Source: a virus
Reading direction: 5' to 3' (one strand)
IMG/VR virus record: IMGVR_UViG_3300045988_028961
DNA: 49,651 bases
The notes under the pieces are model-generated. The model saw only the letters and a list, made by a program, of their open reading frames with translations, was not told the DNA's origin and searched no databases. Positions 7,260 through 37,681 of the stretch are shown in pieces; position 1 is the first letter of the stretch; the number at the start of each line of letters is the position of its first letter. The translations under genes and the position numbers were made by a program.

Positions 7260-7697
7260 ATGCCGGCAGGAGCGCCAAGAAAATGGAAAAGCGTAAGCGC
7301 GATGCAAAAGGCGATTGACGCTTACTTCAAAGAGTGTGAGGGTGAGCCGTTTATCGGCGATGACGGTTGTGCTGTGCGAGATAAGTACGGCATACCGATT
7401 ATCATTAACGTAAAGCCGCCGACGATAACGGGACTTGCGTTAGCACTTGGATTTACAGGCAGACAAGCGCTGCTGGATTATCAGGCAAGGCCAGAATTCG
7501 CGGACACGGTTACGCGAGCAAAGGCCAGATGTGAAGAATACGCTGAATCTCGCCTTTATGACAAGGACGGGGCAAACGGTGCAAAATTTAGTTTGGGTTG
7601 TAATTTTGGATGGAACTCCGGCGAGGAAAGGCGCGGCGATCCTGCTGCGTTTGCGGCTTTGATTTCTGCAATAAAGGGCGGCAGCGATGCAACTTAA
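7260..7697 (+). CDS. terS: Terminase small subunit (gp3-like DNA-packaging protein)
   Basis: Sits directly upstream of, and overlapping, the large terminase. PPTITGLALALGFTGRQALLDY is an HTH-like segment typical of small terminases. Confidence 0.7.
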   Translation: MPAGAPRKWKSVSAMQKAIDAYFKECEGEPFIGDDGCAVRDKYGIPIIINVKPPTITGLALALGFTGRQALLDYQARPEFADTVTRAKARCEEYAESRLYDKDGANGAKFSLGCNFGWNSGEERRGDPAAFAALISAIKGGSDAT

Positions 7698-8895
7698 ACA
7701 GCTTTCGCGGAAGCAAAAGGCCATATTTGGATTTACGGAATCTGACGATCTGGCTCTTGTGTGTGATGGCTCCGTCCGATCCGGCAAGACAACAATCATG
7801 ACGCTTGCGTTTGTTGCTTGGGCCATGAAGAACTACGACCGCACCAACTTTGCTATTTGCGGAAAGACGGTGCAGTCGGCGGAACGCAACATCTTAAAGC
7901 CGTTGATGGAAATAGAGGGGCTGGGCGCGGCGCTGTCGATGAGCTATAAGGTTTCCACGCGTGTGCTGACGGTTCGGTGTGGAAACGTGACGAACTGGTT
8001 TTATCTTTTCGGAGGAAAAGATGAAAGTTCGTACATGTTGATTCAGGGTATCACGCTGGCCGGAGTACTGTTTGACGAAGTGGCATTGATGCCGCGGTCG
8101 TTCGTCGAGCAAGCGCTTTCTCGCGCGATTTCGTTTGAACACCCCAAGTACTTTTTCAACTGCAACCCCGAAAGCCCAAACCATTGGTTTTATCAGGAGT
8201 GGATCAAAGCACCGCGGAAGAATACGCAGCATATTCACTTTTTGCTGGACGATAACCCCGTGTTGACGCCGCAGATGATAGAACGGACAAAGGCGATGTA
8301 CTCCGGTGTGTTCTACGACCGGTATATCCGGGGGCTGTGGGTGATCGCCGAGGGCCTTGTTTACCCCATGTTCTCCCGCGAGGTCAATGTGACCAGCGAA
8401 CGGGGTGGGCCGGGGACGTATTATATTAGCTGCGACTACGGCACGCAAAATCCCACGGTGTTTGGCCTGTGGCGTGTGCACAAGGGCGAAGCTGTGATGG
8501 AAAAGGAATACTATCACAGCGGGCGCGAGACAAACCGGCAAAAGACGGACGAGGAATATTATCAAGACCTGGAAGCCTTTGCGGATGGGGACAAGATCGA
8601 GCGGATCATTATTGACCCCAGCGCCGCATCGTTTGCGGAGTGCATACGGCGACATGGTAAGTTTTCTGTGTGGAACGCCAATAACGCGGTGTTGGACGGT
8701 ATTCGACTGACGGGTGCATTGATGAAAGCCGGAAAGATAAAGTTTCACGAAAGTTGTGTACATGCATTTGAGGAATTCGGACTTTACAGCTGGGATTCTG
8801 AAGCGGCAGAGGACAAGGTAATTAAAGAGAATGATCACGTGTGTGATGCCACACGCTATTTTTGCCAAACTGTACTTAGGAGAGAGTTAAGATGA
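7687..8895 (+). CDS. terL: Terminase large subunit
   Basis: Walker A CDGSVRSGKT, Walker B-like VLFDEV, and a C-terminal nuclease region with ...DHVCDATRYF. Confidence 0.9.
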   Translation: MQLKQLSRKQKAIFGFTESDDLALVCDGSVRSGKTTIMTLAFVAWAMKNYDRTNFAICGKTVQSAERNILKPLMEIEGLGAALSMSYKVSTRVLTVRCGNVTNWFYLFGGKDESSYMLIQGITLAGVLFDEVALMPRSFVEQALSRAISFEHPKYFFNCNPESPNHWFYQEWIKAPRKNTQHIHFLLDDNPVLTPQMIERTKAMYSGVFYDRYIRGLWVIAEGLVYPMFSREVNVTSERGGPGTYYISCDYGTQNPTVFGLWRVHKGEAVMEKEYYHSGRETNRQKTDEEYYQDLEAFADGDKIERIIIDPSAASFAECIRRHGKFSVWNANNAVLDGIRLTGALMKAGKIKFHESCVHAFEEFGLYSWDSEAAEDKVIKENDHVCDATRYFCQTVLRRELR

Positions 8896-30757: not shown

Positions 30758-30985
30758 ATGAAACTGAATGACAAAATCTATGATACCCTCAAGTGGGTGG
30801 TGATGATCGTACTGCCCGCCATCGCCACGCTGTATGCCGCGCTGGCTCCCGTCTGGGGCTGGCCCCGGCCCGATGACGTGGTGCTGACGCTGAACGCCGT
30901 GACGGCCTTCGCAGGCGCTGTGCTGGGCATTTCCACGGCGCAGTACAACAAGGACAAGGCCAATGAGGGCAGCGACAATGCCTAA
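30758..30985 (+). CDS. Holin
   Basis: Two TM helices (LKWVVMIVLPAIATLYAALA and LNAVTAFAGAVLGIS) and a charged C-terminus. Directly upstream of the amidase. ATG 30722 is an alternative start. Confidence 0.7.
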   Translation: MKLNDKIYDTLKWVVMIVLPAIATLYAALAPVWGWPRPDDVVLTLNAVTAFAGAVLGISTAQYNKDKANEGSDNA

Positions 30986-31676
30986 CATCTTCCTCAGTCC
31001 CGAGGATCGGGCCAGCAACGTCTACGCCAGCTCTGCATTGTGGAACGGGCGCACCACCAACGAGAAGGAACAGATGGGCCGGTGCGCCGACTATCTGGAG
31101 ATCGCGCTGAAGCGCTGCGGCTGCGAGGTGATCAATGCCCAGTACGGCAACATGTACGACCGGGTGCGGGCATCCAACGCGTGGCCCGCCGATCTCCACA
31201 TCGCGCTGCACACCAACGGCTTCAATGGCTCAGTGGCGGGTACGCGGGTTCACTGCTACCCCAGCGACAAGAGCCGGAAGATCGGCAAGCTGATCCAGGA
31301 GCGGATCGCGCCCCGGTCTCCCGGCGCTCCGGACTATCTGGTGGAGGATTCCGCCCTGTACGAGCTGCGGGCAACCACCATGCCCGCCGTGCTGCCGGAG
31401 TTCGGCTTCCACGACAATCCGGAGGAGGCCCAGTGGCTCATCGACAACATGGAGGCCATCGCGGAGCAGACCTGTCAGGCCGTGTGCGAGTTCTTCGGCA
31501 TTCCCTACATCGCGCCGGACAAGCAGATCGACCTCGATCCGGAGCCGGTGCCCGATTCGGGCACGATCTACCGGGTGCAGGTGGGCGCGTTTGAGAGCAA
31601 GACCAATGCCGAGGCGTATCTGGCGAAGGTGCGCGAGGTGCTGCCGGAGGCGTTCATCGCCGAAGTGAGGGTGTGA
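30978..31676 (+). CDS. Endolysin: N-acetylmuramoyl-L-alanine amidase (Amidase_3-like) with a C-terminal SPOR-like domain
   Basis: ...DLHIALHTNG...RVHCYP...LPEFGFHDN is amidase-like. The C-terminal YRVQVGAFESKTNAEAYLAKV is a SPOR signature. Confidence 0.85.
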   Translation: MPNIFLSPEDRASNVYASSALWNGRTTNEKEQMGRCADYLEIALKRCGCEVINAQYGNMYDRVRASNAWPADLHIALHTNGFNGSVAGTRVHCYPSDKSRKIGKLIQERIAPRSPGAPDYLVEDSALYELRATTMPAVLPEFGFHDNPEEAQWLIDNMEAIAEQTCQAVCEFFGIPYIAPDKQIDLDPEPVPDSGTIYRVQVGAFESKTNAEAYLAKVREVLPEAFIAEVRV

Positions 31677-31687
31677 GAAAACGACAA

Positions 31688-31711
31688 CAGCGCACCCATG
31701 TGGGTGCGCTG
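31688..31711. terminator. Hairpin between convergent genes
   Basis: CAGCGCACCCA tg TGGGTGCGCTG perfect inverted repeat. Weak U-runs. Confidence 0.5.
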
Positions 31712-31725
31712 TTGATCAATAAGCG

Positions 31726-32064
31726 TCAGCCTCTCTCGTGCAGGCCAACGGCCTGGGCCAGCAGAAGACGAACGTAAGCTGGGCAGGTGTTCGTGCCAGA
31801 TTCCCAGTTTTCCACCGTCCGGCGGGGGATGCAGAAGCGCTGGGCAAAGGCGGCCTGGGACAGGCCGGTGGCGGCACGGATCTCCTTGACCGTCAGATGG
31901 GCGGCGTCCCAGAGCTGGCCGAGCTGCTGGAGGCGGTCATCCGGGATCGCGGCGTCGGGCGCGTCGCCCCAGATGGATGACAGGGCCGCGTCGGAAATGA
32001 AGGCGTCGCGGTCGGCGGAGGCCAAGGCCTCGGCCCAGAGGACGTTGAATTGAAAATCAGTCAT
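31726..32064 (-). CDS. XRE-type HTH protein (antitoxin-like or autoregulator candidate)
   Basis: The C-terminal LTVKEIRAATGLSQAAFAQRFCIPRRTVENWESG... is a classic XRE HTH. Confidence 0.7.
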   Translation of the reverse strand: MTDFQFNVLWAEALASADRDAFISDAALSSIWGDAPDAAIPDDRLQQLGQLWDAAHLTVKEIRAATGLSQAAFAQRFCIPRRTVENWESGTNTCPAYVRLLLAQAVGLHERG

Positions 32065-32082
32065 GCTGCTCTCCCTTCTGCG

Positions 32083-32370
32083 TCAGCGGACTTCGAACGC
32101 GACGATCTCACTGTCGCGGTCGGCGTTCTCCTCGTCGAACTCCCGGCCCTCGGCCTGGAAGCGGTAGACGGGCCACAGCTCGACTTCCTGCGGGTTCTCC
32201 GTGTCGAGGTCGTAGCGGTTCAGCACCCGGAAGGAGCGCAGGTATGCTTCGCCGTTCCAGCCGTCGGCGCAGTACAGAGCACCGTCGATATCGTAGATGG
32301 GCATGTCGTTGGAGGGCTGGGCGTTCCACCAGGAATCAACCGGGGCGATGGCTTTGATGTTCTCGTTCAT
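32083..32370 (-). CDS. hypothetical acidic protein (95 aa), first gene of the 2-gene module
   Basis: RBS GAGAGGAG. Trp- and acid-rich. No domain recognised. Confidence 0.6.
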   Translation of the reverse strand: MNENIKAIAPVDSWWNAQPSNDMPIYDIDGALYCADGWNGEAYLRSFRVLNRYDLDTENPQEVELWPVYRFQAEGREFDEENADRDSEIVAFEVR

Positions 32371-32422
32371 GTTGTTCTCCTCTCTGCCGCGTGGCGGCGA
32401 TCCATATCTAACTTACGGGTTT

Positions 32423-32451
32423 AGTATACCACCGATTCGGTGGTATGTCAA
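32423..32451 (-). promoter_or_regulatory. Consensus-like promoter with a palindromic operator in the spacer
   Basis: On the minus strand: TTGACA (32451-32446), a 17-nt spacer, then TATACT (32428-32423). The palindrome ATACCACCG-att-CGGTGGTAT at 32426-32446 fills the spacer. Confidence 0.65.
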
Positions 32452-32561
32452 GCATAAATCGCAGAACTTTTTGAAAGAAAATCTGAGCGAGGCGTGAGGC
32501 TACGATCCGCCGCCCTCCGCCTCCGTGAATAGCTCCGCAAGCTCACGGCGTGGGAATCAGC

Positions 32562-36577: not shown

Positions 36578-37681
36578 CTATTTTGCCTTTGTTTGTAACG
36601 TGTTAGTAACCGCACTGACCAGCGTTTCTGCGTCAATGTGCGTGTAAACGTCGGCAGTTGTGGCATAATTGGCATGACCGAGAATTTTTTGCAGATATTC
36701 AGGGGCAAGACCTTCTTTGACCGCGCGGGTGGCGTAAGTGTGCCGCGTGGCATGGGGGGTCTTTTTTTCTATTTTGAGCCTTTCCAACAGGGAGTAATAT
36801 TCCCGCCTGCGGAAGTTGGCAGGGACTTTTTGACCATCATATCCTGAAATTAGCAAACTGCCGTTTGCTTTTTTTGCAAAGTATGCAAAATACTCCTGGC
36901 CTTCTGGCCGGATAGGGATAATGCGGTTTTTGCCTGCTTCTGTCTTTTCACCGCCGACCACATAATCCCCGTGATAATCTTTCAGTGGTAGGGTGAACAA
37001 TTCACCGATGCGCATACCGGTGGCAAGAAGCATAAGGATGATCTTGGCGGTGTCGCTGCCGTCCTTTTCTAGCTTTTTAATCTCGGCGGCGGTAAACACG
37101 TCTTTTTCTTTCTTGACGTTTTCCGGAAGCTTTACAAAGCGGGCAAAGTTGGTGGTGCAAATTTCCTCTCGCACGGCCCATGTGGACATCTGGGTAATAA
37201 GCTGCTTGTACTTGTTTACCGTGGAGTGGCTTTTGCTCATGTGCTGGTCGATCACCGATTGGAAGTCATCGGTGCGCAGGCTGCGAAATTTCTTATCGTG
37301 CAGTGGCTGAAAGATCACATAAGCGCGTTCGTAGGTCTCGATGCCCTTCTCTCCGATCTCGCGGTAATGCTCCGCTTTCCACTCGGTAAAAACTTCCGAG
37401 AAGGTCATGTTGTACCGTTCGTCCAAATCCTTGCCGGAAAGCTTCTCTAAGGCCGCCAGCGCGTCCGTTTTCTTCTCGTAGTATCCGACAATGACCTTGT
37501 TCTTCGCGGCCACCCACGGCCTTGTACGGCGGCCTGAAAGCTTATAAACGGTTCCGGCTCCGTTGGGACGCTTCAACGCTTTGCGGGGCGCTGCGGCCTG
37601 TCTCTTTCCACACCACGGGCAAAACGTTGCATTGGCGGGAACTTCTCTCTTACAGCTCTTACATTTCGTTGACTTTTCCAT
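36578..37681 (-). CDS. int: Tyrosine integrase with an N-terminal zinc ribbon
   Basis: CKSCK...CPWCG N-terminus. C-terminal catalytic region ...HATRHTYATRAV...LGHANYATTADVYTH. Confidence 0.9.
   Translation of the reverse strand: MEKSTKCKSCKREVPANATFCPWCGKRQAAAPRKALKRPNGAGTVYKLSGRRTRPWVAAKNKVIVGYYEKKTDALAALEKLSGKDLDERYNMTFSEVFTEWKAEHYREIGEKGIETYERAYVIFQPLHDKKFRSLRTDDFQSVIDQHMSKSHSTVNKYKQLITQMSTWAVREEICTTNFARFVKLPENVKKEKDVFTAAEIKKLEKDGSDTAKIILMLLATGMRIGELFTLPLKDYHGDYVVGGEKTEAGKNRIIPIRPEGQEYFAYFAKKANGSLLISGYDGQKVPANFRRREYYSLLERLKIEKKTPHATRHTYATRAVKEGLAPEYLQKILGHANYATTADVYTHIDAETLVSAVTNTLQTKAK

Follow-up and report, generated by a model that had tools for sequence, protein, structure and literature searches.

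What is the small two-gene unit that a temperate phage carries directly beyond its endolysin gene, and what does it do there? The phage genome is the IMG/VR virus record IMGVR_UViG_3300045988_028961, 49,651 nucleotides long (this whole stretch is called the window below). The unit consists of a promoter, a gene for an acidic protein of 95 amino acids (p95), a gene for a helix-turn-helix (HTH) protein, and a terminator. A first-pass annotation, made from the sequence alone, offered two labels for it: toxin-antitoxin-like or novel accessory system. The second label is the fitting one. We find that the frame of the unit is an operator-bearing promoter plus the HTH gene and that the genes between them are exchangeable cargo. 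The whole is probably an anti-defense cassette of the acr-aca type, named for anti-CRISPR (Acr) and anti-CRISPR-associated (Aca) genes, in a temperate phage of gut Clostridia. We are most confident of the acr-aca-type architecture with an autorepressor. That p95 is an anti-defense protein is a reading we favor more cautiously, and that it acts specifically against CRISPR is possible, with a little less than an even chance of being right.

The unit is compact. Its sigma-70-type promoter (32423–32451, minus strand) has a −35 hexamer TTGACA at 32451–32446, a 17-nt spacer, and a −10 hexamer TATACT at 32428–32423. The hexamers agree with the consensus at 11 of 12 positions, the promoter is the sole promoter-like site between 31000 and 33200, and transcription is predicted to start at about 32416. 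The spacer is spanned by an operator, the 21-bp palindrome ATACCACCG-aat-CGGTGGTAT (32426–32446), which overlaps both hexamers and whose core, TACCAC-N7-GTGGTA, has one copy in the window versus 0.03 expected. The p95 gene (32370–32083, minus strand) is preceded, 6 nt upstream, by the ribosome-binding site (RBS) AGGAG at 32377–32381. The gene for the HTH protein (32064–31726, minus strand; 112 amino acids, HTH_3) follows 18 nt beyond it, and an intrinsic terminator hairpin (31685–31714, minus strand) with a 13-bp stem, 9 G-C pairs, a loop of 4, and then a T-rich tail closes the unit. The first-pass annotation had called the promoter, the palindrome, both open reading frames (ORFs), and the terminator on the minus strand, and all are present where it put them. 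Its description of a self-contained accessory unit, with a promoter and a terminator of its own, also stands.

The frame is conserved in related phages. We compared 80 IMG/VR loci with HTH homologues (54 to 89% identity) and the window, giving 81 loci, together with 8 loci that have p95 homologues. In 76 of the 81 loci, the pattern TTGACA-TACCAC-N7-GTGGTA-TAnAnT precedes the HTH gene on the same strand by 270 to 1435 nt; many of the 81 are near-duplicates, so that the counts overstate independent support. This conservation goes far beyond chance and agrees with the earlier proposal that the operator is built into the promoter. The outer half-sites of the operator are conserved, and its inner bases vary as palindromes (CCGAATCGG, CCAAATTGG, GCAATGC, and CCCAATGGG). 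Across loci, which are related sequences whose counts are not independent, these inner bases covary with residues of the HTH helix: ACCAC-GCAAT-GC operators pair with IPTRTLEDWERG in the HTH, ACCACC operators with IPRRTVENWESG, and ATACCCC operators with GLTRT...IPYR. Because of this covariation, the HTH protein probably binds the TACCAC-N7-GTGGTA operator, and it is likely the autoregulator that it had been taken for. Position and orientation of the cassette vary between phages. It is convergent with the endolysin gene in the window, lies between homologues of the window genes at 32550 and 32907 in L011–L027, and is co-directional, after the lysis genes, in L052, L056, and L076. The cassette therefore behaves as a portable unit.

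What the frame carries is not fixed. Cargo-region ORFs, called with our own script under RBS and length rules, number one to three per promoter-to-HTH interval and fall into at least 11 unrelated families in 22 architectures. Their products are mostly small and very acidic (63 to 185 amino acids), with an isoelectric point (pI) of 4.05 to 4.2 in five families (F3, F4, which is p95, F7, F9, and F12). A p95-family gene stands upstream of the HTH gene in 6 of the 76 operator-promoter loci, and other cargo does so in 70. The six are the window, three near-identical contigs (L008–L010), and two loci with fusion forms (L050 and L040), in which p95 has an extra 70-residue N-terminal module; in L040, another gene separates the fusion from the HTH gene. 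Homologues of p95 also occur without this HTH gene, in eight loci (L001–L007 and L091), and L094 has only a weak partial match to p95 (49% identity over residues 49–95). The first-pass annotation had counted on the two genes occurring together in other genomes, and a survey finds the pair only in near-identical phages and in the two loci with fusion forms. The p95-HTH pair is thus not an obligate unit, and the annotation's own criterion speaks against a toxin-antitoxin system; what is conserved is the operator-bearing promoter together with the HTH gene.

A further arrangement was seen in the F2-F1 cassettes (L032, L034, L047–L049, L057–L074, and others). Here, the HTH gene has a promoter-like site of its own, TTGACATTTCCTGCGCAGCGTGGTAAACTAT, that includes one operator half-site. 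Downstream of this site, about 65 nt ahead of the HTH start codon, comes a strong hairpin, AGGAAAAGCACCGG-TTT-CCGGTGCTTTTCCT; the whole region spans −190 to −55 relative to that start. The pairing of TTGACATTTCCTGCGCAGCGTGGTAAACTAT and the hairpin suggests separate control of the regulator, an arrangement that is not present in the window.

Two sibling cargo genes point toward counter-defense. The first encodes the 65-residue F12 protein (L060, 2789–2986; also in L082), a member of the AcrIC5 family (Pfam PF22147, E = 3.6e-24, 85 bits against a cut-off of 27) that matches the solved AcrIC5 structure (PDB 7yhr, E = 5.8e-9) along almost all of its length. Validated as an inhibitor of type I-C CRISPR-Cas with a broad spectrum, AcrIC5 has homologues among the Firmicutes and Actinobacteria of the gut (PMC7913775). 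The protein is acidic, and occlusion of the protospacer-adjacent motif site of Cas8c is its predicted mode of action (bioRxiv 10.1101/2025.06.06.658234). In L060 and L082, its homologue takes exactly the place that p95 has in the window, and AcrIC5 and p95 are alike in being small and highly acidic. However, the two share no sequence similarity, p95 is predicted to be mostly beta-strand, and p95 did not match the AcrIC5 model PF22147 in a Pfam scan at E up to 0.1. The second sibling is a Cas7 homologue (PF05107, E = 2.9e-49) at 2189–3004 of L102, a prophage in a metagenome-assembled genome (MAG) of Candidatus Gemmiger faecavium (DXFO01000006.1). As the final cargo gene it directly precedes a gene for a 48%-identical HTH protein, and it lies between the integrase gene and genes for holin, endolysin, and tail fiber. 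No second cas gene was found within the 6.3-kb locus, and the lone Cas7 may be a Cascade subunit that the phage carries to counter type I-C systems. Together with the architecture, the AcrIC5 homologue and the lone Cas7 argue for counter-defense rather than a toxin-antitoxin system. In L060, a second palindrome, CACCACCATTTTGGTGG, closely precedes the −35 hexamer, giving a two-operator layout like the IR1/IR2 inverted repeats of several Aca families.

The same architecture defines known acr-aca operons. Their features are consensus −35 and −10 elements, an inverted repeat that always lies within the core promoter, one or more small upstream genes, and a downstream HTH repressor (PMC9410906), and the Aca regulator serves as an anchor for guilt-by-association searches (PMC9410906; PMC6765145; PMC13551039). 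The likeness of our unit to these operons (Aca1 to Aca12, among them Aca1 of Pseudomonas phage JBD30 and Aca2 of Pectobacterium phage ZF40) extends to the inverted repeat within a strong consensus promoter and to small cargo upstream of an HTH gene on a mobile element, with p95 and the HTH gene 18 nt apart. In addition, the HTH gene anchors unrelated cargo, at least one family of which is a validated Acr (in the siblings L060 and L082, not p95). The differences lie in the regulator, which has no significant match to PDB entries named Aca and carries an extra conserved N-terminal three-helix domain, and in the hosts, which are gut Clostridia.

The p95 protein itself gives few handles. It contains 21 Asp and Glu, 8 Lys and Arg, and 4 Trp residues, for a pI of 4.06 and a net charge of about −13, and it matches no family in Pfam (E up to 0.1), PHROGs, NCBIfam, or PADLOC. 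It therefore lacks a recognizable domain, as had been noted. Its family is small, with 27 clusters at 90% identity, and a profile search of 1.84 billion representatives returned just 55 proteins (representatives at 50% identity). From 21 homologues, AlphaFold2 built a confident, mainly beta-strand model (predicted local distance difference test score, pLDDT, 92.8; predicted template modeling score 0.79). Foldseek found no PDB match to this model at E < 1, the best having E of about 1, and a search of viral structures in BFVD returned a single, uncharacterized relative. Given the quality of the model, a known toxin fold would be expected to have been detected. The earlier remark that the first protein, being acidic, is unlike a known toxin agrees with its pI and with the absence of any toxin family or fold. 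A Kelch propeller was considered and set aside: in a sequence search of the PDB, the match to the designed Kelch propeller SAKe6 reached E = 1.6e-8 with no single stretch passing, and Foldseek finds no propeller. The profile search also touched RHS-repeat proteins. Because Foldseek gives neither a propeller nor another fold, we read the Kelch and RHS matches as a shared beta-hairpin motif, G.LY...GWNGE.Y. This motif lies in residues 17–58 (MPIYDIDGALYCADGWNGEAY), which resemble single Kelch or RHS-type beta-hairpin repeats and give spurious multi-stretch matches.

The p95 domain also occurs in other protein contexts. P0176 (156 amino acids) is a natural fusion of an N-terminal XRE HTH (HTH_3) and a p95 domain (hhalign probability 97.7%), P0149 (299 amino acids) is a tandem duplication of the domain, and P0161 (467 amino acids) has it at the C terminus, with a weak DUF3849 match. 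In joining an XRE HTH to a p95-type domain, P0176 recalls Acr-Aca fusions (AcrIIA1, AcrIIA13 to AcrIIA15, AcrIF24, AcrIIA32, and the fusions cited in PMC9410906), whereas regulator and p95 are separate genes in the window. The 70-residue module fused ahead of the p95 core in L040 and L050 (150 to 157 amino acids in all) is acidic (MKKLIDTATNTT...); it also stands alone as cargo in L044 and L053–L055 (70 to 77 amino acids), followed by the basic zinc-ribbon protein F6.

Cargo families, p95 among them, also occur in company without the HTH anchor. L001 and L002 have the gene order F1-F5-p95-(F3-like) and L091 has p95-F1-F5, in both cases beside DUF4942 genes. These clusters (L001, 3131–4703; L091, 3001–4164) contain F1, F5, p95, and an F3-like protein of 131 amino acids in varying order and adjoin a DUF4942 gene of 630 codons; they look like an anti-defense island that draws on the same gene pool. 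In L003–L007, a Cro-like early operon has the p95 homologue in second place, ahead of LPD25 and DUF4942 genes; these domains belong to the polyvalent proteins tied to early counter-defense. At the L004 promoter, upstream of the Cro-like HTH gene beside the p95 homologue, no comparable operator was seen.

The HTH protein is the conserved anchor. It has a three-helix N-terminal domain (residues 1–55) and a C-terminal XRE-type HTH (59–105, with HTH_3 at 59–95), matches phrog_25567 over its full length, and belongs to a larger family than p95, with at least 291 clusters at 90% identity and members in 347 IMG/VR stretches. In the AlphaFold2 model (pLDDT 95.1), the conserved three-helix domain packs on the HTH. 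Foldseek found no structural match for the N-terminal domain; only the HTH part has relatives, namely the C-terminal domain of HigA2, HipB, C-proteins, Aca2, and Aca7, all at E > 0.3. Aca2 and Aca7 are among these generic XRE matches at E > 1, in a comparison limited to Aca families with solved structures. The fold search thus returned generic XRE domains only and does not separate an antitoxin from an Aca protein. Foldseek runs on both proteins had been among the suggestions of the first-pass annotation; they gave no fold match for p95 and only generic XRE matches for the HTH protein.

Among described regulators, Aca11 contacts DNA through residues at positions 18–39, and Aca12 has 140 amino acids and is restricted to phages of Streptococcaceae. 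In this indirect comparison, our HTH protein differs from them in the position of its HTH (59–95) and in its length (112 amino acids). A recent survey of Aca proteins (PMC13551039) mentions neither Clostridia nor gut hosts. Distant full-length homologues of the HTH protein (30 to 32% identity) occur in Streptococcus phages PH15, Javan242 (L129; MK448882.1, 31165–32111), and Javan273, where they follow the holin and lysin genes and stand behind two small unknown genes. One small gene at these Streptococcus phage loci has a weak Phage_Gp111 match, as does a cargo gene in L104. The genes upstream of the distant homologues in Streptococcus phages had no known Acr match. Within a kind of system that is already known, our HTH protein thus stands for a candidate new Aca-like family, and its cargo adds candidate inhibitors that are likewise new.

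The hosts of these phages are gut Clostridia, Oscillospiraceae-like. Two of the five MAGs that hold the cassette encode Cas8c, and one of them (G004) carries a type I-C locus and an array of 74 repeats (repeat ATTTCAATCCACGAGGCCCGCATGGGCCTCGAC) on contig C75 (L124, 2100–7100). Because the sibling cargo is linked to type I-C and Cas8c occurs in two of five MAGs, type I-C CRISPR-Cas is our leading guess for the target of p95. One G004 spacer has a 30-nt partial match to an unrelated locus, L117.

Several results weigh against an acr-aca-type cassette with p95 as its inhibitor. None of the 73 spacers of the G004 array matches the cassette contig or the window, and the link to CRISPR comes from sibling cargo, not from p95. 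The p95 protein resembles no known Acr or anti-defense protein by sequence or fold, and a match of its model to AcrIF1 in the Foldseek search of the PDB was not significant. On the side of the regulator, a PDB profile search with the HTH protein at E up to 10 returned no entry named as Aca, and the nearest relatives of its HTH domain, in sequence as well as in fold, are HigA2 antitoxins, by generic HTH similarity and with weak scores. The redundancy among the 81 loci belongs here as well.

The genomic setting raises the alternative that survives best. The host element is the genome of a temperate phage, with genes for the large terminase (7687–8895), tail and fibers, endolysin, and integrase. 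The endolysin gene (Amidase_3 and SPOR domains; 30963–31676), on the opposite strand to the unit, ends at 31676 with the unit directly beyond it, and the integrase gene lies at 36578–37681. The terminator hairpin lies between the convergent endolysin and HTH genes and may serve both; its T-rich tail is on the minus-strand side only. A validated acrIB2 locus of a Clostridioides difficile phage is placed in a similar way, right after structural and lysis genes and beside the lysogeny region, although its proteins are unrelated (PMC10732046). The slot between lysis genes and integrase is also the classic place for a moron, and p95 could be one that protects the lysogen from other phages by defense or superinfection exclusion, with the HTH protein setting its level. 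An own promoter and terminator would suit such a gene, and variable cargo at a fixed slot is typical of prophage defense hotspots too. We nevertheless consider this unlikely. PADLOC (PADLOC-DB 2.0) gave no match for p95 or the ten other cargo families, and beyond that only weak generic HTH matches came up, a result that does not support the earlier suggestion of a defense or exclusion module. Moreover, the cargo proteins are tiny and acidic and lack enzymatic domains, the sibling cargo that could be identified is counter-defense (AcrIC5) or a lone Cas subunit, and homologues of p95 are found as well in early operons among genes of the polyvalent-protein type.

A purely regulatory pair is less probable again. 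Here, p95 would be a co-factor, anti-repressor, or sensor domain for the HTH protein, with no role in immunity. The natural fusion of the two domains in P0176 speaks for such a partnership, as does the predicted co-transcription of both genes throughout this phage lineage. A dedicated co-factor would not explain, however, that the same HTH protein goes with more than ten unrelated cargo families. Nor would it fit that p95 occurs without this HTH and forms the C terminus of some large proteins, and in the window the operator is found only at the unit's own promoter, so that no regulon is apparent.

The toxin-antitoxin reading, which came first, takes p95 for the toxin of a type II system of HigBA or MqsRA style and the HTH protein for an antitoxin that would neutralize it through its N-terminal domain and repress their common promoter. 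The unit shares with HigB2-HigA2 and MqsR-MqsA the gene order, with the small gene ahead of the HTH gene, an XRE-fold HTH, and an operator-bearing promoter that is predicted here to be autoregulated. The top PDB and NCBIfam matches of the HTH protein, both weak, are HigA2 (PDB, E = 0.002), in which an additional N-terminal segment also precedes the HTH, and MqsA (TIGR03830, 24.9 bits where the cut-off is 61.8, with only the HTH covered). Yet this reading is very improbable, with p95 in only 6 of 76 loci and other cargo of one to three genes in 70, eight p95 loci without the HTH gene, an acidic first protein with no toxin family or fold despite its confident model, AcrIC5 and Cas7 among the sibling cargo, and an HTH protein whose N-terminal domain is predicted to be folded, unlike the disordered one of HigA2, and which lacks the zinc-finger cysteines of MqsA (no CxxC pairs).

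Returning to an acr-aca-type cassette, we observe its anatomy, the conserved frame, the diverse cargo with AcrIC5 and a lone Cas7 among it, and the covariation of operator bases and HTH residues, and we infer repression of the operon by the HTH protein, the anti-defense activity of p95, and its target. The most likely mechanism would be a burst of expression of both proteins on entry, followed by shut-off through the HTH protein. When the phage enters the cell, the near-consensus promoter would fire strongly and give one transcript from which p95 and then the HTH protein are made. p95 would bind and block a component of host immunity, type I-C CRISPR-Cas being the leading candidate. As the HTH protein accumulates, it would dimerize and bind the TACCAC-N7-GTGGTA palindrome between the −35 and −10 hexamers. 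The bound dimer would exclude RNA polymerase and bring the operon down to a low level, one that would also be kept in the lysogen.

A more ambitious version of this proposal is also conceivable, and we think it somewhat more apt to fail than to hold. In it, the HTH protein would found a new Aca family confined to phages of gut Clostridia, and the cassette would represent at least ten undescribed anti-defense proteins. Among them, p95 would have a new fold and inhibit either type I-C CRISPR-Cas or a defense system that has no known inhibitor, and the lone Cas7 would poison Cascade assembly.

Few anti-CRISPR or anti-defense proteins are known for phages of gut Clostridia, which are abundant and hard to culture. 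The pattern TTGACA-TACCAC-N7-GTGGTA-TAnAnT, together with its regulator, provides a precise search handle for them and has already led to at least 11 candidate families in 80 viral contigs. Confirmation of p95 and its sibling cargo would bring new inhibitor folds, help to account for the dynamics between phages and their hosts in the gut, and provide components with which type I-C editing tools could be controlled.

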